Assembly: GCF_030013595.1 (NCBI RefSeq)
Contig: NZ_CP122768.1
Length of the DNA stretch: 64,000 nt
From: Escherichia coli
GTDB taxonomy: Bacteria; Pseudomonadota; Gammaproteobacteria; Enterobacterales; Enterobacteriaceae
Direction: 5' to 3' (one strand)
The notes below the pieces were generated by a model. The model saw only the letters and a program-made list of their open reading frames with translations. It searched no databases and was not told where the DNA came from. Shown here one piece after another: positions 50,212 to 60,803 of the stretch (position 1 is the stretch's first letter; the number at the start of each line of letters is the position of its first letter). The position numbers were made by a program, and so were the translations under genes.

Positions 50212-50244
50212 AAAAAAGCGCCCACTAGAGGCGCTTTAATTTTA
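50212..50244. terminator. Bidirectional hairpin terminator between the convergent helicase and M15 peptidase genes
   Basis: aagcgcc cactaga ggcgctt, A-run upstream and T-rich downstream. Confidence 0.6.
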
Positions 50245-50595
50245 TCCATTCCATCGTGATTTTTTCGATCTGGAATCGATATGCGTAAAGGTTTTATATT
50301 TGCCTAAGCCGTATTGAGTAGGATATTTCCCATCAAGATAAGCATGGACAATATCAGGGGAGACACCCTTGATCACAATGTCAGCCGCACGGCCTCGAAC
50401 GTGATAGCTGTTGGTTGCACCGCCTACATTCTTGTTATGAGTCGGGCAACGGTTGCCACTGTTAATAATCACTGGTTTACCGAAGTGCTCTCGTACATCC
50501 TCAAGAATTACCAGTAATTCAGCGTCGATTGTATCATAATCACATTTTCCGCATTTACATTTAAATTCCTTGCGAGAAAAATGCTTACTTAACAT
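50242..50595 (-). CDS. Peptidase M15-family (zinc D-Ala-D-Ala carboxypeptidase fold) protein, possible phage cell-wall hydrolase
   Basis: 117 aa with SYHVRGRAADI and HxH-type motif; GGGGG RBS. Confidence 0.6.
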   Translation of the reverse strand: MLSKHFSRKEFKCKCGKCDYDTIDAELLVILEDVREHFGKPVIINSGNRCPTHNKNVGGATNSYHVRGRAADIVIKGVSPDIVHAYLDGKYPTQYGLGKYKTFTHIDSRSKKSRWNG

Positions 50596-52249: not shown

Positions 52250-55200
52250 TTAAGAAACAGTAATACCGGTAGTTGCTTTTTTAGTTACCATTACCGTTAA
52301 ATCACTGATCCATGTGCTAGGCGTCCAGTTGTTGATTGCGCTTGATTGCACTTCAAAGGTCAAGGTCACAGCACCCTTACCCGCTGGCATATCAATAACA
52401 CCTGAGTAAAGACCAGTATTACCGCCATACGCCCTATTATACAACTCTGACCCATTCTTACGAACAATCAGGCGACAGGTGTCGTAATAGGTATTATTGT
52501 TCGACCCTTCACGCGCTCGCAATCCACCAAAACTAACAGCCGGAATAACGATTTGACGATCGAACTTGTGATCATCTTCAACGCGAACAGTGACCGTACC
52601 TTGTGGATAGCCAGCATAACCATTATCAACGTTAACATCACGATGCGGGAACTTACGTCCAATCACCTTAACGAAATCACCCTTAACCTGAGTAGCTTCA
52701 AGCATACCCTTAATAACACAGCTAGAGTTAATCGTGACGTTGTTCAGAGTACCAGAATCGGCAGTGATATTACCTTTAACGGTTGCATTCATGAACGTAG
52801 CGGACCCGTTCTTGTTGATATGCCATCCGGTAGATCCGTTCCAGTCGGAAGACTGGATATAGTTACCAATTTTAGCGTTATCAATTGCGCCATTTACAAT
52901 CTTGGCGTTGGTGATCGCGCCGTCTTGGATTTTCGCTGAATTGATCGCAGCATTGCCAATTTTAGCCGTGGTGATACTAGCATCAGTAATCTGTGCTGAT
53001 CCGATTGAGGCATTACGAATCATGGCACTGTCGAGATAAACCTTGTTACCTTCGATACCAAACGGGCATACTTCCGATCCGTTCTGTGGAGCTACCGCGA
53101 TTTTATCAGCATTAAAGATGATTCTCGTCGGTTGCGCCGGATCGTTGGTTGCGCTCATGTGAATACCAGCCACGCGACCATCTGCATTAACTGCCAGATT
53201 ATATTTGCTGTTAATGGTTCCTTTCAAAGCATCGATTTTTACATCTGCTTCCTGATTCACGCCAGCAATCTTGCCATCCATTTCTACCCGAACTTGATCA
53301 ATCTTGCTTGCGCTTGCTGCCTCACTGGTAGCAATTGCTTGTTTCAGGGTAGTAGCAGATGCGCTGACTTCGGATTTAATATCGCCTTTCAGTTCAGCTT
53401 TAACCTGATCAATCTTAGTGGAGCTAGCTTGCTCGCTGGTAGCAATCAGACTCTTTAAGGTATTGGCTGAGGCTTGGACCGTCTGCCCTGTTTCGGTAGT
53501 GATTTGCTTATGCATTGCATCAATTTTAGCATCGGCATTAGCGCCAGCTTGAGCAATAGCATCCGCGATAGTTTCATCTAAGCGGTCTTGTAAACCAATC
53601 AGGTCTTCCAGTGCTTCTTTGTCCTGATCGTCCCAGCTAATTGTAGATCTCATTTGCATGAAATAAGGTTCAGACCAAACAGCATCATCCATACCGAAAA
53701 TATCGTAGTGAGCACCACGGATATAATAATCACCGTCAGCAATATCAAAGGAAGTATGGCTAACACTATTCGTGCTTACTGCCCTTGCATCGGAGAAAGT
53801 GTTATCGGTTGCATACTGGATGATTGACCCTGCATAATCATGTTCTACGTCATCTGCCCAGCTAACAAACACACTATTAAAGCCACCACGCGCACTAAAA
53901 CCTTTCATTGGCTTATGTTGTGGGTTGATAGCCACTAAACGCGCTGGGGCGCTCTCTGAGTTGTTATAGCCCTTAGCCGATACTTCTACCGTCAGTTGAC
54001 GCGAAAGGCCGTTAAACTGGTTCATATCAAGCGTATAAGTCCATGATTCAGGATCGCGGGTACGGTACTGAATAGACTTACCAGCCTTGTTAGTCACCTT
54101 GATAATGTATGCTTCAAACAGGTCACTAAACTTGTTAGTTTCACCGTTGATCTCAACATCTAATTGTTGCTGATTTTCCCATTCGATAATCAGATCATTA
54201 CCTTCGAAAGTTCCTGGCGTGCTACCCTGATTTTTGATTCGAATAACCGGAGTCGGCAATTCATAGGTAACAGTCGGATTCTGGTTAATCAGTTCTACCC
54301 ACTCGGAACGAGCAATAATACCGAAAGCACAAACTCGGTAATCATAAGAGCGATCTTTCGCCAGTGCATTGACACTGAAAATTTGCTGTGAAGTCTGTCC
54401 CAGCTTAATCCAGTTAGGCGATCCGCTTACACGGTAATCAATCTGGAAACCATAACGGTTAAAATCTTCCGGTGCATCCCATGTCAAAGTAACGTTTTTA
54501 CCGTAAATCGTCTCACCAGTTGCCTTAATCCTGAAATTAGTAGGCTTCTGTACTGTCATTGAATCCGGTAAACCACTTGGTCTATTGTCTGGAGTTGCCG
54601 CATAGTTCAGGTCAGTATAAACCTGAGAATTATATTCTGTGGCGGTGATAGTCATCATCCCAGCAATACCAGAATCAATCGAGCGATCAATTGCAGTAAT
54701 ACGCCATAAGGAATTATTCAGCTTCAATTCATCATAGGTTACGCTGATAACGTCCCAAACTTCGGCAGTGAATGCGTCAGTAGTCATAAAGCTGATAACC
54801 TGAGTGATACGAGATTTATTTCGCTCAATGCTCGCGAGTTTATCAATCTGATCTTTAGACTTAACAAAACGATATTCAATATCTTTAGCGATAATTCGAC
54901 CATCTTGACGAATAGTAGCATCGTTTTCAGCATCAGCCGGATAACGTAGCATTTGCTCTGAATAGTCAATTGATGGTTCTTGATACATCGCGTTAATGGT
55001 ATTGAAATAACCGTTAGTGCCACCTGTTTTCAGTGATACCTTACCCATCATGATATTGTCTTCATTGAAGGTATGCTTAACAATATCAGGAGCATCCAGT
55101 TTCAGCGTAATACGTCCAAAGGATTCGAACATCACCCCGCCGAAAGTCTGCATAAGATTAGTCAAGTTCTCTTTAAAGCTGGCGTTCGGATCACATGCAC

Positions 55201-56026
55201 CGTTTGAATGTAGATCCATCTGGCGTACTTGTTTACGTACTTTCAGGAATGAATCAACGTTAATGTTTTCAATTGGTACAGATAAGCCATATTTTTCATT
55301 TGTTAGGTAGTGGAAAATCTGGTCCACGCCGTTAGTGCTAGCCTCAATAGCATTAGTTTCAAGGTTACGAATCTTTAAGCCCATAACATCGACTGCTACC
55401 TGGCTATTTGGCTGGAGAATATCAACACCAGCAGCAAGAGATTTGTCATCACGACGTAACACAATACACATGGTTGCAATACCATTGCCTTTGTAGTTGT
55501 CGTTCCAGTCTGATCCTAAATGACGTTTTGCCAGTGACAAAGCGGTGTTAGGATTCTTACCCGTGCGAAACTCAACTTCTAAAACTTTCCGGTATTCTTC
55601 TTTAATGTTGCCTTTGTCCAGTACACCATCACGGATCGTCATGTTCTTACCAACAAGAACATTTTTGTTATCGATAAACAGTGCTTTGTAATGGTCGATT
55701 TCACCCTCGGCAATTGCGAAGATTTGCACTAACTTATTGTTTTCTTGCTTAGAAATTGCTTTGTAAACGCAGATTGCACCCGTGCGGGTAGTACCAAAAA
55801 GAACGGGTAATACTGTCTTCGGATCGTTTGATGTTCCTAGTGTCACCGCATTATCTGGGCTTTGTACTTTCGGTGTTTTTGGTGCGCCTACAGTGGAAGC
55901 GATCAAGGTCATTGCACCAGCAGCCATACCGATAGCGACTGCGGTCATAACCGAAAATGTTGCGGCTGCCGCCATCCCCGCCGAAGCACCAGCAATAACC
56001 GCGCCTACCAATACTTCAAATCCCAT
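52250..56026 (-). CDS. Host-specificity / central tail fibre protein (lambda gpJ-like)
   Basis: 1258 aa; C-terminus colinear with lambda J (GTLNNVTINSSCVIKGMLEA...VIDMPAGKGAVTLTF...), fibronectin-III-like middle; unusual hydrophobic N-terminus. Confidence 0.8.
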   Translation of the reverse strand: MGFEVLVGAVIAGASAGMAAAATFSVMTAVAIGMAAGAMTLIASTVGAPKTPKVQSPDNAVTLGTSNDPKTVLPVLFGTTRTGAICVYKAISKQENNKLVQIFAIAEGEIDHYKALFIDNKNVLVGKNMTIRDGVLDKGNIKEEYRKVLEVEFRTGKNPNTALSLAKRHLGSDWNDNYKGNGIATMCIVLRRDDKSLAAGVDILQPNSQVAVDVMGLKIRNLETNAIEASTNGVDQIFHYLTNEKYGLSVPIENINVDSFLKVRKQVRQMDLHSNGACDPNASFKENLTNLMQTFGGVMFESFGRITLKLDAPDIVKHTFNEDNIMMGKVSLKTGGTNGYFNTINAMYQEPSIDYSEQMLRYPADAENDATIRQDGRIIAKDIEYRFVKSKDQIDKLASIERNKSRITQVISFMTTDAFTAEVWDVISVTYDELKLNNSLWRITAIDRSIDSGIAGMMTITATEYNSQVYTDLNYAATPDNRPSGLPDSMTVQKPTNFRIKATGETIYGKNVTLTWDAPEDFNRYGFQIDYRVSGSPNWIKLGQTSQQIFSVNALAKDRSYDYRVCAFGIIARSEWVELINQNPTVTYELPTPVIRIKNQGSTPGTFEGNDLIIEWENQQQLDVEINGETNKFSDLFEAYIIKVTNKAGKSIQYRTRDPESWTYTLDMNQFNGLSRQLTVEVSAKGYNNSESAPARLVAINPQHKPMKGFSARGGFNSVFVSWADDVEHDYAGSIIQYATDNTFSDARAVSTNSVSHTSFDIADGDYYIRGAHYDIFGMDDAVWSEPYFMQMRSTISWDDQDKEALEDLIGLQDRLDETIADAIAQAGANADAKIDAMHKQITTETGQTVQASANTLKSLIATSEQASSTKIDQVKAELKGDIKSEVSASATTLKQAIATSEAASASKIDQVRVEMDGKIAGVNQEADVKIDALKGTINSKYNLAVNADGRVAGIHMSATNDPAQPTRIIFNADKIAVAPQNGSEVCPFGIEGNKVYLDSAMIRNASIGSAQITDASITTAKIGNAAINSAKIQDGAITNAKIVNGAIDNAKIGNYIQSSDWNGSTGWHINKNGSATFMNATVKGNITADSGTLNNVTINSSCVIKGMLEATQVKGDFVKVIGRKFPHRDVNVDNGYAGYPQGTVTVRVEDDHKFDRQIVIPAVSFGGLRAREGSNNNTYYDTCRLIVRKNGSELYNRAYGGNTGLYSGVIDMPAGKGAVTLTFEVQSSAINNWTPSTWISDLTVMVTKKATTGITVS

Positions 56027-56445
56027 TATTCACCCCCGAATCTATAAACTTGTTCATAGTCAATGTCTGAAACAGGAATGGTCATCCAGATACCATCTTC
56101 TTCAACGAGGCCATAACCGGAATAATGAGGAACTACGGAATAATAATTACGGTTTCCTAATTTGTGGGCTGTGACCAGTAAGTCGCCGTCCTGTAAATCA
56201 TCAGTGACTAATTTGAAATGTTTCTTAATTGGTTGAAGGATATTTGAATACCCGCTTAATTCTTTGCAGATTTTCAAACCTTCTTCTTTAGTTGAATATT
56301 TTTTATAAAGAGAATTATATAGGTCAGTACCAGCGAGAATATCGATGATCTTACATGCAATTAGATTGCAATCATTCTCACCCTGAACGAACTCCTGACC
56401 TATTAAAGAATTGATGTAATCGGTGATAAGCCTAGTTTTTAGCAT
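56026..56445 (-). CDS. Minor tail protein (gpI/gpK-position tail assembly protein)
   Basis: ATG at 56445 with GGAGG RBS (track ORF extended upstream to 56601); precedes J-like gene with 1-nt overlap. Confidence 0.45.
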   Translation of the reverse strand: MLKTRLITDYINSLIGQEFVQGENDCNLIACKIIDILAGTDLYNSLYKKYSTKEEGLKICKELSGYSNILQPIKKHFKLVTDDLQDGDLLVTAHKLGNRNYYSVVPHYSGYGLVEEDGIWMTIPVSDIDYEQVYRFGGE

Positions 56446-56491
56446 GTTGAATACCTCCATGCTGTTATTTACTAGGCTTAGGGAGAAGGGA

Positions 56492-57145
56492 TTATTTCTT
56501 CGATGAATGCCACTTGCTTTCGCTATTCCACTTCCCGGCTCGGGAGAAGAATAGATCGTTCTCGTTTCCGGCATAGGAACGGTGGATACCATCGGAGGCA
56601 TGACTACGAGCGTTTTTATCTAGAACTTCCCAGATACTATTAAGCTGAAATTCTGATTCGTTTTTACACTCATCATCTTCATGTTCGATGTTAATCCCGA
56701 TGGAATCGACTACCCCACGGAAAACAGGGTAAGTAGTTTCAACCTTGCCCGTGTTGGGGTTAAGGAAAACCATCTCGATTTTCACATCAGATTTATCGAA
56801 TTGCTTGTTTCGAATTAGGGTAATGTATTCTTCGCGAACGTTAGAAACGGTTACGTTAATCCCGTTGTTGTTGATCTCCTTCTCTTCGGTATTCGATGAG
56901 ATTTGAAGAAAATCACCCGTTGCGAGATACGTAAATCCGTTATAGTCCAAATCGAAATACCCATCTGTAAGCCGTAGAACGTCCCCTGACGCTGTTATCA
57001 CTTCGATAATGTGAAACATCGATCCAGTGGAAAAAAGCTGCGGTAGCGTCAATCTAGACACGTTCTGACCTGTCTGGTCGTTGTAGACCTCGATGAAGTC
57101 CAGATTAGTGCATAGTTTGCTGAATGATTCTTGAATAGTTGCCAT
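56492..57145 (-). CDS. Minor tail protein (gpL-position)
   Basis: 217 aa between distal tail gene and J-like gene. Confidence 0.45.
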   Translation of the reverse strand: MATIQESFSKLCTNLDFIEVYNDQTGQNVSRLTLPQLFSTGSMFHIIEVITASGDVLRLTDGYFDLDYNGFTYLATGDFLQISSNTEEKEINNNGINVTVSNVREEYITLIRNKQFDKSDVKIEMVFLNPNTGKVETTYPVFRGVVDSIGINIEHEDDECKNESEFQLNSIWEVLDKNARSHASDGIHRSYAGNENDLFFSRAGKWNSESKWHSSKK

Positions 57146-57705
57146 TATACATTCTCCACTAATTCAAATTTCATCTTGCCAATCTGGGCGATCTTCCAAT
57201 CGATATTTTCAGTTTTGAGAACAAATTCACCTTCTACGTTTTGATACTTGATCACCTCACCCGCCAGGACGTTTTGACGCAAGTTAGGGAAGAGTTTCAT
57301 TTCACCACCTGATTTCACGTCTTCGGTGATCGTGTAGATTTTCTTGTGGTTCTCAAACTGGATGATAGTTCCTGCTTTCAGTGTTCCGGTGAAGTTGGAG
57401 AGTCTCACCTTACGCCCACCGCGAGCAGTACCAGCAGCAGCCGTTACCATCTGGCGTACATCACCTGTATATTTTGAAAAGTAAGACAGTGGCACATTGA
57501 AAGGACGACCAAAAAGGTGACGTGCTACAAATTCTTTTACTTCGTTAATATCCTGAGCCATGTAATTCGCGGTAAATTCTGCTTCGTAAAAATGGATGCC
57601 AGTAAAGCGACGCTGGAACTTACCAGAAATAGATTGCGCCTTAAAGAAAGGCTGTTTTGATTTAAGAGTAAAATCTGTGATTTTAATATTCTTGGATTTG
57701 AACAT
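57145..57705 (-). CDS. Minor/distal tail protein (gpM/Dit-position)
   Basis: Directly downstream of tape measure gene; probable start ATG 57705 (track start 57720 lies in a hairpin). Confidence 0.45.
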   Translation of the reverse strand: MFKSKNIKITDFTLKSKQPFFKAQSISGKFQRRFTGIHFYEAEFTANYMAQDINEVKEFVARHLFGRPFNVPLSYFSKYTGDVRQMVTAAAGTARGGRKVRLSNFTGTLKAGTIIQFENHKKIYTITEDVKSGGEMKLFPNLRQNVLAGEVIKYQNVEGEFVLKTENIDWKIAQIGKMKFELVENV

Positions 57706-57756
57706 AGAAAAGCCCCCCATAGTTTTATGATTATTTATGACTATGGGGGCTTTTAA

Positions 57757-60111
57757 TTACATCTTACGGCGTTGTGCGTCTTCTACCGCCTGAGCAACTA
57801 ACTTAGCGTGACGTTTGATAGCATCCATGACCATCTTGTCTGAGCTATTAACGTTGCCGTTAATGTTCAAAGGCGCATTAACTTCAATCGGTTGAGAGTT
57901 GCCACCGCCTGATTTTTGAGCAGCAAGGAAGTCTTTCAAATCACCGTTAGTACGCTGATCAACTACTCGTTCACCCTTATCAAGCAACCATGTACCCTCA
58001 CGAGGGATGTTATCAATACCATCATGAGCCATACCGCTAACGTTAGTAGACTTGATGTTGGCGATGCTCCCCATGTTCTGAGAAACAGCCAATGCAGCAG
58101 CCGCGATTTTTTGACCTGTGGTTACGTTGGTCGGATCGTTCCATGCATCGGTAGCAGCCGTCCACATGTTCACCGTCGCTTGTCCAATAGAGAATGCTTT
58201 ATGAGCAGTGAAAGCCATCTGCATAGCTTTAGTGTTTTCCTGCCCGAAGAGAGTCATTGCAGCAGCAAAACCGCCATACATATCATCAGCTATTGACTGA
58301 CGAGCATCAGCATATTTCTTCTCAATTGCAGCCATTCGTTTTTGATGGTTTTCATTGAGTTTTTCTAATTCTTCCATCCGTTTAGCCGGATCGGTGATCC
58401 CATCAATCTTGATTTTACCGGTCTTATAATCTTGTTCCGCTTCCGATTTCTCTTTATCGATTGCATTAAATTTAGCAAACGGATCATTTGGATCTTGATA
58501 GTCTAAGCTATTGGTCAACTGATTGGTTTTAAAACCATCCATTCCATGCAAAGAATCTTCAATCTGTGAATAACTTTGCTCGGTATCATTCACACGACGC
58601 ATATATTCTTCGTAGGAGATAGCTTTACCATCAAGTAACCGTTTATGGCTTTCTAACTCGTTGTCCCTGATTTGTTGCAAAACTGTTAAGGCATTCAAAG
58701 CATCAACCGGATCAGCACCCAGCATCATTTTATAGATGTTTTCTGCGTTCTGGTCTAACAGTTGCTGACGTTTAGCGGCTGCGTCTTGCTGTGAGATTAA
58801 GCCCAGATCTAAAGCAGTGTCCAAATCTTTCAAGCTGGCTTCTAACTGCTTGTTTTGAGAAGCAATAGACGCGGCTGTCTGTCCTTGCAATTTAACATCA
58901 AGAGCATTCAGTCGCTTGATTGCATCCTCGCGTGCTTTCTGTGCTTTTTCTGCGGCTTCCTTAGCCTTTTTAGCTGCCTCTTCCGCTTTCTTCTTGGCTT
59001 CTTCTTGTTCTTTTTTTGTTGGACCAGTGACGCCTCCACCTTGACCCGTTGGGGTAAATCCAGTATCCGATTTATTTCCAGTGATAGTAATTACCGGATC
59101 GCCGTTTTTATCACGGGTAACTCCTTCACTATCCACCCAACGATCAGGATAATTTGGTTTATTGTTGAAGCTGGCTTGTCCACCTGCTAGACCAGTAGAA
59201 CTATAACCATGCTTGTTAATAAAACCACCGTTAGCCATAGCCATATTCTGGCGAGCTTTTTCAAACCTTTCATTAAACGTCTTTAATGCGTTGAATAAAG
59301 CGGTCTTTTCCCAATCTTTATCAAACCAGTTGTATAACTTGTTCATCCCTTCAACAACTGGATTTAGCGCATTTGCTGCCATACCCTTTAAGTTATCGGT
59401 AAGGGTATCCATATTTTTAGAGAATTTATTATATTCTTCGGCTGTATCATTGGTGATTTTAACAGTTTGCTGATTAATGGCGTTTACAGCTTCCTGATAA
59501 GATCCGTATTTCTGCAATTCATCAGCCATATGACTTGAATCACTGGCTAACGATTCCATCATAAACTTAACATCAGCGATAGACGCACCAGCCTTGCGCA
59601 TATCATAGAAGACCTTGATTGCCGCTTTCATCCCGCCTTGTGGATCGTTCATAAACTCGGCATAATCTTTAATCTTCAAACCTACACTTTCTAGGTCGTC
59701 TTCAATACCGCCACCGTTACGCCATGCATCAGCCAGTTTATCTAAGGTGTCTTTGTTAATATCACCAAATTTCTCAACGGTTAAGCCAGTGCCAGAGAAT
59801 TGCTTCTCTAATTTCTGGAGTGTTTCGACGGTTAAACCAGTTGCTTTTGAAACTTCGCTGTATTCCTTTACATAATCACCGATGGCATTTGCAGCAGAGA
59901 CAGCACCAGCAGCCAGACCAACAAAACCACCAGCAGCCAAAGCAAGCGATCCACCAGTTCCGCGAAGGGTTCCACTTAAACTAGATAAACCACCAGACAA
60001 ATCAAGATTCATTGCCCTTTCTGAAAGGTTATCAAGCATGTCAATCGCTTGGTTGGTACTTCTCCTTAGACCGTCGTTATTCCCTTCTATTGTTACTATA
60101 TGTCTTGTCAT
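57757..60111 (-). CDS. Tail tape measure protein
   Basis: 784 aa, long coiled-coil/Ala-Lys-Glu-rich regions (EEAKKKAEEAAKKAKEAAEKAQKA), Gly-rich segment. Confidence 0.8.
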   Translation of the reverse strand: MTRHIVTIEGNNDGLRRSTNQAIDMLDNLSERAMNLDLSGGLSSLSGTLRGTGGSLALAAGGFVGLAAGAVSAANAIGDYVKEYSEVSKATGLTVETLQKLEKQFSGTGLTVEKFGDINKDTLDKLADAWRNGGGIEDDLESVGLKIKDYAEFMNDPQGGMKAAIKVFYDMRKAGASIADVKFMMESLASDSSHMADELQKYGSYQEAVNAINQQTVKITNDTAEEYNKFSKNMDTLTDNLKGMAANALNPVVEGMNKLYNWFDKDWEKTALFNALKTFNERFEKARQNMAMANGGFINKHGYSSTGLAGGQASFNNKPNYPDRWVDSEGVTRDKNGDPVITITGNKSDTGFTPTGQGGGVTGPTKKEQEEAKKKAEEAAKKAKEAAEKAQKAREDAIKRLNALDVKLQGQTAASIASQNKQLEASLKDLDTALDLGLISQQDAAAKRQQLLDQNAENIYKMMLGADPVDALNALTVLQQIRDNELESHKRLLDGKAISYEEYMRRVNDTEQSYSQIEDSLHGMDGFKTNQLTNSLDYQDPNDPFAKFNAIDKEKSEAEQDYKTGKIKIDGITDPAKRMEELEKLNENHQKRMAAIEKKYADARQSIADDMYGGFAAAMTLFGQENTKAMQMAFTAHKAFSIGQATVNMWTAATDAWNDPTNVTTGQKIAAAALAVSQNMGSIANIKSTNVSGMAHDGIDNIPREGTWLLDKGERVVDQRTNGDLKDFLAAQKSGGGNSQPIEVNAPLNINGNVNSSDKMVMDAIKRHAKLVAQAVEDAQRRKM

Positions 60112-60114
60112 AAA

Positions 60115-60465
60115 TTACCCCGTTTGTGCGCTTCTGAGTTTCTCAAGCAAAGATGGATCGAACATGTTCAGCATTGCCGCTTTACGTTCTTCTTCTTTCT
60201 TGCGTGCAATTTCTTCCAGTTCTTCTTTAGTTTTAAAGAGTTTTTCTTCTCTAATTAATTGGAATTGGCTAGGCTTGAGTTTGCGTGCAGTTTCGCGAGT
60301 CATTCCTTGTGACGTCATATACATGGAATATTGCAACATCGCATTCTGCATATCATGAAACGCGGGGCTTTGTGGTTCTAAGTAGGTGTCGAAAATGTAT
60401 AATTTCCAAAACAGAGTGATTGGCATATTATCCATTTCATCTTTACTAAGCCCCGATCGCATCAT
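60115..60465 (-). CDS. Tail assembly chaperone, T-like frame
   Basis: 116 aa immediately upstream of TMP; its frame is open across the stop of the preceding gene. Confidence 0.45.
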   Translation of the reverse strand: MMRSGLSKDEMDNMPITLFWKLYIFDTYLEPQSPAFHDMQNAMLQYSMYMTSQGMTRETARKLKPSQFQLIREEKLFKTKEELEEIARKKEEERKAAMLNMFDPSLLEKLRSAQTG

Positions 60466-60494
60466 TTGCCGGAAATAGAAATTCAGAAGCGGGT

Positions 60495-60803
60495 TTACTT
60501 TACCTCGTTTTCAATTACTGCCGGATCTTGCATCAATGACGCTTGAGCAACCAAACCGATTAATTCACTACGGACGTTAGTATACAGTGCCTTAACTTGT
60601 TCCATAGATTCAAATACTGGTTTACCGTCTTCATCTTCAATACAACGAAGAATAGAACGTTCATCACGGTCTTCTTTATCAGTATTGAAAACATGTTCGT
60701 TAAATTCTTTTACTGACATAGGGCGAGCATAGAACGTGAATCCGCCGATGGTCAGAGATTCACGTTTCGGAGAAAGAGCTTTCAGCATTTCATTAATATT
60801 CAT
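60495..60803 (-). CDS. Tail assembly chaperone, G-like
   Basis: 102 aa acidic protein between tail tube-side genes and TMP. Confidence 0.45.
   Translation of the reverse strand: MNINEMLKALSPKRESLTIGGFTFYARPMSVKEFNEHVFNTDKEDRDERSILRCIEDEDGKPVFESMEQVKALYTNVRSELIGLVAQASLMQDPAVIENEVK

Follow-up and report, generated by a model that had tools for sequence, protein, structure and literature searches.

The hydrophobic N-terminus of a J-like tail-tip protein, encoded within a 64,000-nucleotide stretch of Escherichia coli DNA (contig NZ_CP122768.1; hereafter the window), is probably a gpI-type C-terminal half, made up of two helices, a plug and β-strands, contained in the first ~107 residues of the protein. 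We put the probability of this reading, which is based on sequence comparison, at roughly 0.8. A fused gpI-J arrangement has already been described in other phages and in gene transfer agents, and it is widespread among the relatives found here.

Architecture of the J-like protein

The J-like gene opens with a gpI-C-like module and continues with hub domains, putative FN3-like repeats and a coiled fibre, ending in a lambda-type receptor-binding domain. Its features are as follows.

52250..56026, minus strand: J-like central tail fibre / tail-tip gene, 1258 aa (open reading frame and translation)
55886..56026, minus strand: Ala/Gly-rich hydrophobic segment, residues 1-47 (hydropathy, composition, collinearity with gpI)
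55820..55885, minus strand: polar linker APKTPKVQSPDNAVTLGTSNDP, residues 48-69 (BLASTP to gpI 156-223; profile to 9e7m/8iyk chain I)
55706..55819, minus strand: VLPVLFG motif and β-strands, residues 70-107 (hhalign, pb3 HMM match, AF2)
54557..55705, minus strand: baseplate-hub domains of the T5 pb3 / lambda J / RcGTA megatron type, residues ~108-490 (PDB profile, Foldseek)
52253..52657, minus strand: lambda-type C-terminal receptor-binding domain (Ig_GpJ_C), residues 1124-1258 (Pfam, PDB, BLASTP)

Read on the minus strand, 55871..56026 correspond exactly to the first 52 codons of the open reading frame, MGFEVLVGAVIAGASAGMAAAATFSVMTAVAIGMAAGAMTLIASTVGAPKTP. Two plus-strand open reading frames, at 55782..56174 and 55862..56047, were set aside as antisense shadows of the conserved minus-strand gene.

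Composition and conservation of the N-terminal segment

The original prediction described the first ~50 residues as strongly hydrophobic, and both composition and hydropathy agree. Residues 1-47, a length sufficient for two helices, contain 45% Ala plus Gly and a single charged residue (E4), with Kyte-Doolittle means over 19 residues of 1.35-1.88 across residues 1-45, as against a maximum of 1.04 in the other ~1200 residues. These values lie close to those of lambda gpI residues 100-155 (46% Ala plus Gly, no charge, Kyte-Doolittle maximum 1.78). Small-xxx-small (GxxxG-like) motifs were not enriched in the segment (13 versus 11.0±1.8 in composition-matched shuffles, p~0.2), nor were they in gpI, and a Pfam search with the first 120 residues returned noise only (Ammonium_transp and DUF3482 at E~0.8). 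In an AF2 monomer model, residues 1-58 had no confident structure (pLDDT 25-39, and below 50 throughout residues 1-47), which speaks neither for nor against helices.

While a word-indexed protein search gave only 7 close homologues, an exhaustive representative search captured the diversity of the family, with 1370 matching clusters, and the N-terminus was scored in the top 146 full-length hits. Because 112 of these 146 best full-length relatives carry a hydrophobic, charge-free N-terminal segment, the hydrophobic N-terminus is a conserved feature rather than a chance low-complexity run. A few relatives lack the module altogether. In one of them (L005), whose J-like protein begins directly at IPVVYG, no hydrophobic open reading frame lies between the DUF6950 gene and the J-like gene, and in relatives that begin in this way the module seems to be absent at that position.

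Homology to the C-terminal half of lambda gpI

Residues 1 to ~107 of the J-like protein are homologous to, and collinear with, residues ~100-223 of lambda gpI, its C-terminal half. When residues 48-107 were compared with gpI 156-223 by BLASTP, the two were 35% identical (E=1e-6), and hhalign against a gpI family alignment paired residues 61-108 with gpI 177-223 at 95.5% probability (E=1.6e-8). A 23-sequence profile of the N-terminus, searched against the PDB, matched the gpI chains 9e7m (E=3.2e-6) and 8iyk_I (1.5e-4), the F2-pyocin gpI-like protein (4.3e-4) and T5 pb3 262-302 (6e-6); known gpI structures are lambda PDB 8IYK, 8XCG and 9E7M (chain I), with 9L9P_A and 25VF_9 (‘THIP’) for the T1 and F-pyocin equivalents. 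A profile of residues 1-475 matched gpI (positions 8-96), lambda J (223-448) and T5 pb3, in the last case aligning residues 69-469 with pb3 261-718 (E~1e-46). Among the PHROG families, residues 3-96 matched positions 100-200 of 203 in PHROG 32, ‘tail assembly protein’, and the match to PHROG 31, ‘central tail fiber J’, fell at profile positions 182-309, which implies that I-J fusions are present within PHROG 31.

The significant gpI alignments span residues ~48-108, and the putative helices of residues 1-47 match by position, length and composition only, since low-complexity regions give little alignment signal. Lying collinearly ahead of the significant match, residues 1-47 are the positional counterpart of the gpI helices H1/H2 (gpI ~100-155). 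The polar linker that follows them corresponds in gpI to APKARTPRIQTTDNGKQ..., a stretch that holds the published plug (gpI 159-175; PMC11101478), and residues 70-107 correspond to the C-terminal strands of gpI (~186-223) and to T5 pb3 262-302, with AF2 placing strands at residues 75-118 (pLDDT ~90). Pfam annotation is blind to this gpI-C module because the PF06805 (Lambda_tail_I) model spans only gpI 14-97, the ubiquitin-like domain. With no model for the gpI C-terminus in Pfam and with uninformative labels on related proteins, the segment can look anomalous although it is not.

Hub and receptor-binding domains

Beyond the N-terminal module, both profile and Foldseek searches identified the hub domain fold (HDII, HDII-insertion, HDIII, HDIV) in the J-like protein. 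The hub profile matched T5 pb3 at 9e-47 and lambda J at ~1e-19 in the PDB, and AF2 modelled a confident hub from residue ~70 (pLDDT ~90), for which Foldseek returned pb3 first (E=1.5e-26, TMq 0.70), followed by phage Chi, JBD30, lambda J and RcGTA g15, with lambda J and RcGTA g15 at E~1e-16 to 1e-17. Two Pfam matches in the protein fell below their cut-offs, Phage-tail_3 (19.5 bits against 23) and an fn3 domain after the hub (E=0.005, 17.5 bits against 25); Phage_Tail_Tip was matched at 9.3e-19.

At the C-terminus, Ig_GpJ_C was found by Pfam at 8.2e-34, and the domain matched 9wca, ‘A8 gpJ 713’, at 2.6e-54 and lambda J at 6e-35 in the PDB. The N-terminus had been said to be unlike that of lambda J, and this holds, as whole-protein BLASTP aligns only the C-terminal ~310 residues (with lambda J 872-1131, E=4e-36). 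Lambda J itself lacks the segment because lambda encodes the gpI module as a separate gene just upstream of J.

Neighbouring tail genes

The tail genes upstream of the J-like gene in the window are the following.

56026..56445, minus strand: DUF6950 gene, 139 aa from the MLKTRL start (lambda K / RcGTA g14 position; Pfam DUF6950 7e-12)
56492..57145, minus strand: separate hub protein of the phiJL001 Gp84_N / DUF2163 type, 217 aa (PF09931 8.7e-6, PHROG 2048)
57145..57720, minus strand: distal tail protein (PHROG 1302 ‘distal tail protein’ 8e-17; weak Pfam pb9 B-domain)
57757..60111, minus strand: tape measure protein, 784 aa (size and position, flanked by the TAC/T pair and the distal tail protein)

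PGAP likewise calls a DUF6950 gene of 420 nt, and lambda K shows a faint DUF6950 match beside its NlpC/P60 and JAB domains; no JAB domain was found by Pfam in the DUF6950 product, nor was a JAB peptidase found anywhere in the tail module. The 217-aa hub protein, labelled by PGAP in near-identical prophages as ‘DUF2163 / baseplate hub domain-containing protein’, is the counterpart of RcGTA g13 and lambda L. The tape measure protein had no direct Pfam family match; the lambda and T5 structures lead us to expect that its C-terminus sits on the plug module. The tail module lacks a separate I gene and any open reading frame between the DUF6950 gene and the J-like gene, and the PF06805 ubiquitin-like domain was found neither in the J-like protein, nor in its first 120 residues searched separately, nor in the neighbouring tail genes.

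The E. coli prophage carrying the J-like gene is present in 56 of 5426 complete genomes. In a phage collection, megablast found no match for the tail-tip region, and tblastn of the first 200 residues hit two records only, phage DCP80 and, weakly, a Pelagibacter phage.

Proposed function and alternative readings

In the closed virion, the hydrophobic helices and plug of gpI lie inside the J/L hub, beneath the C-terminus of the tape measure, and once LamB is bound the density no longer shows them, and their entry into the outer membrane has been proposed (PMC11101478, PMC10721106, PMC12617516). gpI has been described as a tripod plug that extends the J β-sheets (PMC10721106), and H1/H2, predicted by TMHMM to be transmembrane helices, are lost from density together with the plug in the open state on a LamB nanodisc (PMC11101478). 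The F7 pyocin equivalent, THIP, likewise has two transmembrane helices predicted by TMHMM (PMC12874032), and an iris/penetration domain has been assigned to residues 1-46 of the RcGTA megatron (PMC7296036) and to residues 1-45 of the roseophage R4C megatron (PMC10276861).

The published structures of lambda, F-pyocin, RcGTA and R4C suggest the steps of a mechanism for the J-like protein. Once the trimeric tip is assembled, residues ~70-107 would join the hub β-sheets, as the equivalent strands do in trans in lambda and would here do in cis, residues ~48-69 would close the channel, and three hydrophobic helix pairs would occupy the lumen beneath the tape-measure C-terminus. Binding of the lambda-type C-terminal domain to an outer-membrane receptor would then cause the hub domains to swing open and the plug to loosen, so that the helices could be expelled towards the outer membrane, where they may hold the tip in place or form the wall of a pore for the exit of the tape measure protein and DNA. 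Insertion of the segment into the membrane is what we infer by analogy with these systems.

It was suggested in the original prediction that the segment is membrane-interacting or hub-anchoring. Both ideas match what has been published for the homologous part of gpI; what the prediction missed is that a gpI-C module is fused to J. It had also set a shared N-terminus forming a buried structural helix against a membrane segment. Homologues do share the N-terminus, and its burial in the virion is expected, but burial before infection does not exclude insertion during infection.

The segment could instead be a purely buried structural or gating element, a lumenal plug and seat for the tape-measure C-terminus that serves tip assembly and DNA retention and is displaced on triggering, never entering a membrane. 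Closed lambda tips do resolve the gpI region inside the hub, where it supports the gpH coiled coil, and outer-membrane insertion or pore formation is a hypothesis in every source paper, for gpI and the megatron alike. The segment is also of borderline hydrophobicity for a transmembrane helix (for its best 19-mer, a rough Hessa-type sum gave a free energy of ~ +0.9 kcal/mol), and the T5 authors doubt the generality of pore-lining hub helices, which in their words ‘cannot be a general feature’ of siphophages. Against this, the long, charge-free hydrophobic character is strongly conserved in distant relatives, beyond what a soluble lumenal plug would need, and the gpI helices both leave the tip on opening against the LamB nanodisc and, like those of the F7 pyocin THIP, are called as transmembrane by TMHMM in the respective papers. 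We regard a role confined to burial as rather unlikely.

A function in the producing cell, as an export signal or membrane anchor (an inner-membrane signal-anchor or a holin-like segment), is far less plausible still. A hydrophobic stretch at the N-terminus followed by a polar A-P-K region has a superficial resemblance to a signal-anchor, but the segment has no positively charged n-region and its hydrophobic length of ~45 residues is unlike that of a signal peptide; moreover, tail-tip proteins assemble in the cytoplasm, and the homologous gpI segment is located inside the virion tip.

The start of the gene had been called well supported, and the evidence bears this out.

56031..56037, minus strand: Shine-Dalgarno-like GGGGGTG, 4 nt upstream of the ATG (direct sequence reading)

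The sequence 5' of the start is GATTCGGGGGTGAATAATG, and the ATG shares bases with the stop codon TAA that ends the DUF6950 gene upstream (TAATG), an overlap that suggests translational coupling of the two genes. PGAP places an identical start in an E. coli prophage at 97% identity, under the label ‘phage tail tip protein’, and Met1 is near-invariant across the homologue alignments. Although the first 40 residues include several in-frame Met codons and the program that lists open reading frames always outputs the longest, it is scarcely credible that the true N-terminus lies at M18, M27, M34, M39 or later and that the hydrophobic stretch is an untranslated extension, given the strong and correctly spaced Shine-Dalgarno, the TAATG overlap, the PGAP start, amino-acid conservation that begins at Met1 both in phage DCP80 and in relatives as little as ~25% identical, and homology of the segment to a virion-resident part of gpI.

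Implications

Reading the N-terminus as a fused gpI-C module implies no new kind of biology and is mostly a correction of annotation; in the genome annotations examined, such proteins carry no label beyond ‘phage tail tip protein’ or ‘hypothetical protein’. The gpI-C / iris-penetration module would tie together by sequence three groups of structures (lambda/T1/F-pyocin, RcGTA/R4C, and T5), and the plug module takes three forms: a gene of its own, the N-terminal part of J, or a portion of a single large hub protein.

A more speculative idea, which we hold only tentatively, is that this prophage family might be a natural ‘minimal’ lambda I system, in which membrane-active gpI-C is made as the N-terminus of J, without a ubiquitin-like domain or JAB peptidase. 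If this were true, lambda-type phages would have in their ubiquitin-like domain and JAB a device for delivery and processing that can be dispensed with, in line with the proposal of Iyer et al. in 2006 (PMC1779556), and the outer-membrane conduit would consist of the three tethered helix pairs themselves. The prophage would then offer a genetically simpler E. coli system, with a lambda-type receptor-binding domain, for testing the hub-helix pore, and the fused form without the two additional domains could suit tests of outer-membrane insertion in E. coli.

Comparison with known systems

Among the closest parallels is lambda gpI, also called TAPI or the tail tip assembly or ‘insertion’ protein, in which a Gly/Ala-rich two-helix region is followed by an APK..TP(K/R)(V/I)Q..DN plug stretch and then by the VLPVL(Y/F)G strands; the order and spacing of these elements are the same here, and in both cases they lie directly 5' of the J hub domains. 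The two differ in that gpI is a separate gene, whereas here the module forms the N-terminus of the J-like protein; in that the ubiquitin-like domain of gpI (PF06805) and the JAB domain of K have no counterpart here; and in the length of the hydrophobic region, ~56 residues in gpI against 47. Fusions of gpI-family sequence to J within one polypeptide are known from prophages. Iyer et al. (2006) described a Gly-rich region and a TAPI-C domain, as well as TAPI-TAPJ fusions (PMC1779556), but those fusions include the ubiquitin-like domain, whereas the protein described here has just the Gly-rich region and the TAPI-C part.

RcGTA (6TBA/6TEH) and R4C (8GTC) share the gene context, with a distal tail protein, a separate Gp84_N/DUF2163 hub, a small peptidase-like gene and a large hub-fibre protein; Pfam and PHROG searches on the three upstream genes, together with PGAP calls in near-identical prophages, identify this megatron-type context here. 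Their megatron begins with ~45 hydrophobic residues that block the channel and have been suggested to pierce the outer membrane, and a hydrophobic, helix-sized segment at the extreme N-terminus of a large hub/fibre protein is likewise present here. The hub fold of the RcGTA megatron is also alike (Foldseek E=1.5e-16); the N-terminus profile aligned collinearly with 6tba_8A (7-127 versus profile 11-113), although not significantly (E=1.1). RcGTA differs in having one resolved short helix and a disordered stretch where the segment here is ~47 residues and of double length, and in carrying a megatron fibre-binding domain in place of a lambda-type C-terminal half (Phage_Tail_Tip plus Ig_GpJ_C).

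Finally, T5 pb3 (7ZHJ, 7ZQP) is the best match in both sequence and structure for residues ~69-470 (E~1e-46; TMq 0.70). Its IPVVYG...AEGEID strands stand directly after the T5 plug, which occupies the same topological position, closes the tube and touches the tape-measure C-terminus. In T5, however, an L-like hub domain is part of the same chain, the plug refolds into β-hairpin ‘legs’ rather than forming hydrophobic helices, and the tape measure pb2 is credited with the hydrophobic membrane segment.

A conserved hydrophobic start to the tail-tip protein

The interval 55870-56026 is the 5' end of the minus-strand gene for the J-like protein, the tail-tip protein of a prophage whose features include the following.

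Features of the prophage region
52250..56026, minus strand: J-like tail-tip protein, 1258 aa (ORF and translation)
56026..56601, minus strand: DUF6950 gene, 191 aa as longest ORF; 139 aa by PGAP, with its start at 56445 (MLKTRL...)
60115..60803, minus strand: TAC/T pair, a 102-aa tail assembly chaperone (Phage_TAC_13) and then a 116-aa Phage_tail_T-like ORF
60846..61352, minus strand: 168-aa protein with the T4 Gp38 adhesin N-terminal domain (3.5e-15)
62059..63984, minus strand: large fibre ORF, Gp34_trimer (3.9e-25) and Peptidase_S74 chaperone (2e-14), apparently cut by the window end
50242..50595, minus strand: Peptidase_M15_3 protein (D-Ala-D-Ala carboxypeptidase-type), downstream of the tail-tip gene

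The original prediction had quoted 52 strongly hydrophobic residues behind a well-supported start. These are the exact N-terminus of the protein, and both statements hold. The ATG (coding strand, GATTCGGGGGTGAATAATG) is preceded at 4 nt by a Shine-Dalgarno-like GGGGGTG and shares bases with the TAA stop codon of the gene upstream; PGAP calls the identical start in an E. coli prophage at 97% identity, and Met1 is nearly invariant across aligned homologues. Alanine and glycine make up 45% of residues 1-47, which include one charged residue, and 19-residue Kyte-Doolittle means reach 1.35-1.88 in this segment, against a maximum of 1.04 across the other ~1200 residues.

Residues 1-460, used as the query in an exhaustive HMMER search, matched 1370 representative clusters, 286 of them at E<=1e-10. 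In the alignment of homologues the same N-terminal plan is common: Met, a hydrophobic stretch, a polar P/S/T/Q/D-rich linker, (I/L)PV(V/I/L)YG and the hub. A hydrophobic, charge-free N-terminal segment is present in 112 of the 146 best full-length matches; in 57 of the 112 the charge-free run spans at least 38 residues, the length of two helices, and many others have a single run of ~25 residues, as in the RcGTA iris domain. The homologue in phage DCP80 shares the same start and 38% identity over its first 200 aa. That record (PQ671644, 141 kb) stands under Straboviridae/Tevenvirinae, and its 1252-aa homologue of a siphovirus-type tail-tip protein (7917..11675), annotated 'hypothetical protein', keeps the hydrophobic start. 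A minority of relatives (P0031, P0033, P0047, P0064 and P0069) begin right at the IPVVYG motif, without the module, and in the one usable contig (L005, carrying P0031 at 2024..7066) no separate hydrophobic ORF separates the J-like gene from DUF6950. Many J-like proteins therefore carry the module at their N-terminus, but not all do.

Homology to the C-terminal half of lambda gpI

In lambda, the 223-aa gpI has a gene of its own, located between K and J. Sequence comparison identifies the hydrophobic N-terminus of the J-like protein (MGFEVLVGAVIAGASAGMAAAATFSVMTAVAIGMAAGAMTLIASTVGAPKTPKVQSPDNAVTLGTSNDPKTVLPVLFGTTRTGAICVYKAIS...) as the counterpart of the C-terminal half of gpI (...SGGVFQIVLGAAAIAGSFFTAGATLAAWGAAIGAGGMTGILFSLGASMVLGGVAQMLAPKARTPRIQTTDNGKQNTYFSSLDNMVAQGNVLPVLYGEMRVGSRVVSQEIS...). 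BLASTP aligned J-like residues 48-107 with gpI 156-223 at 35% identity (E=1e-6). Residues 3-96 are matched by positions 100-200 of 203 in the PHROG 32 'tail assembly protein' profile and by positions 182-309 of PHROG 31, 'central tail fiber J', a family that therefore already contains I-J fusions. A profile built from 23 sequences of the N-terminal region (~115 residues) matched the solved gpI chains 9e7m (E=3.2e-6) and 8iyk_I (1.5e-4), T5 pb3 residues 262-302 (6e-6), the F2 pyocin gpI-like protein (4.3e-4) and, weakly, the T1 equivalent (0.098); hhalign against the gpI family alignment gave 95.5% probability (E=1.6e-8). Statistical significance in the gpI alignment comes from residues ~48-108; for the hydrophobic helices the match is one of position, length and composition only. 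Pfam is blind to the module because Lambda_tail_I spans gpI 14-97 only, the ubiquitin-like domain.

When 27 diverse relatives were used to build a profile of residues 1-475, this matched, in the PDB, gpI through its positions 8-96 and lambda J through 223-448, so that one polypeptide combines what in lambda is the C-terminal half of I and J. It covered J 265-503 (~1e-19) and matched the T5 hub protein pb3 (E=9e-47) in one stretch, 69-469 against pb3 261-718. An AlphaFold2 model of the same residues had a mean pLDDT of 80 (~90 from residue 70, <50 for 1-58), and Foldseek placed T5/DT57C pb3 first (E~1e-26, TMq 0.70), followed by phage Chi, JBD30, lambda J, the RcGTA megatron and T1. Pfam matches to the protein are Ig_GpJ_C (8e-34), which is the receptor-binding domain at the lambda J C-terminus, and Phage_Tail_Tip (9e-19), with Phage-tail_3 and fn3 scoring weakly. 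The BLASTP alignment with lambda J was confined to the final ~310 residues (E=4e-36), bearing out the expectation that the N-terminus is unlike that of lambda J. The whole protein is a mosaic: its front half is RcGTA/T5-like, whereas its fibre tip and receptor-binding domain are lambda-like. For residues ~1067-1258 (52250..52825, minus strand), PDB 9wca, 'A8 gpJ 713', is a closer match (E=2.6e-54) than lambda J is (E~6e-35), so the receptor of this prophage may be other than LamB.

The tail module and its prophage

Upstream, on the same strand and in this order, lie the TAC/T pair and the genes for a tape measure of 784 aa, a distal tail protein, a separate Gp84_N/DUF2163-type hub protein and DUF6950. 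The pair resembles the G/T frameshift pair usually found ahead of the tape measure. The 191-aa DUF6950 ORF runs 110 nt into the hub gene, and the 139-aa call is more plausible. Since lambda K has a faint DUF6950 match beside its NlpC/P60 domain, DUF6950 is suggested to be K-like but to lack the JAB domain. T4-like side-fibre parts flank the tail tube gene inside this siphovirus-type module. The Peptidase_M15_3 protein is probably the endolysin; several small ORFs ahead of it had no family matches. Of 5426 complete E. coli genomes, 56 carry the prophage, always on the chromosome; in strain 2017.18.04CC it encodes a serine recombinase and adjoins a truncated ycdX. No near-identical record was found in the phage collection searched.

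Probable working and comparison with known tips

In the closed lambda tip, the gpI trimer forms a lumenal tripod plug beneath the tape-measure C-terminal coiled coil, and its C-terminal strands extend the J hub-domain beta-sheets (PMC10721106; PMC12617516). Ge and Wang described an unresolved N-terminal domain, the hydrophobic, predicted transmembrane helices H1/H2, a plug (159-175) and beta-strands; once LamB is bound and the tip is open, gpI is visible only from residue 167 on, and H1/H2 were proposed to drop into the outer membrane (PMC11101478). The F7 pyocin equivalent is described likewise (PMC12874032), and the first ~45 residues of the RcGTA and R4C megatron form a channel-closing 'iris' proposed to penetrate the outer membrane (PMC7296036; PMC10276861). 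By homology, J-like residues 70-107 would belong to the hub sheets in cis, the tail channel would be gated by residues ~48-69 and three N-terminal helix pairs would sit in the tip lumen; when the lambda-type C-terminal domain binds its receptor, the hub would open and free the helices towards the outer membrane.

That the segment is a lumenal plug and tape-measure seat only is a less likely but serious alternative, because outer-membrane insertion is still a proposal in lambda, pyocin and RcGTA/R4C alike, the T5 authors explicitly doubt the generality of a pore-lining hub helix (PMC10038345), and hydrophobicity is moderate (best 19-mer ~+0.9 kcal/mol against +1.5 for gpI, by a crude summed Hessa-type free energy). 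GxxxG-like motifs in the segment show no enrichment over composition, and the AlphaFold2 monomer is uninformative on residues 1-58. A mis-called start and an export signal are both very unlikely: the start has a ribosome-binding site and is coupled to the gene upstream, the segment is conserved from Met1 onwards, and the homologous part of gpI is located in the virion.

Iyer et al. (2006) recognized the Gly-rich region and TAPI-C domain of gpI and TAPI-TAPJ fusions in prophages, and proposed that the ubiquitin-like domain is clipped off by K's JAB peptidase (PMC1779556). Neither a ubiquitin-like domain, in the J-like protein or elsewhere in the tail module, nor the JAB domain of lambda K, anywhere in that module, was found, so a processing step should be unneeded. 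RcGTA and R4C share the tip gene order (distal tail protein, hub, small peptidase-like protein, megatron), and the J-like protein matches the megatron 'iris/penetration' arrangement in architecture, the N-terminal profile giving a non-significant E=1.1 against the megatron N-terminal domain. The hydrophobic N-terminus is homologous to the gpI C-terminal module and probably works like it, but falls short of full gpI family membership, having neither the ubiquitin-like domain nor a separate gene. All elements of the mosaic and the fusion principle are already published; the main worth of identifying this gpI-like module lies in annotation.
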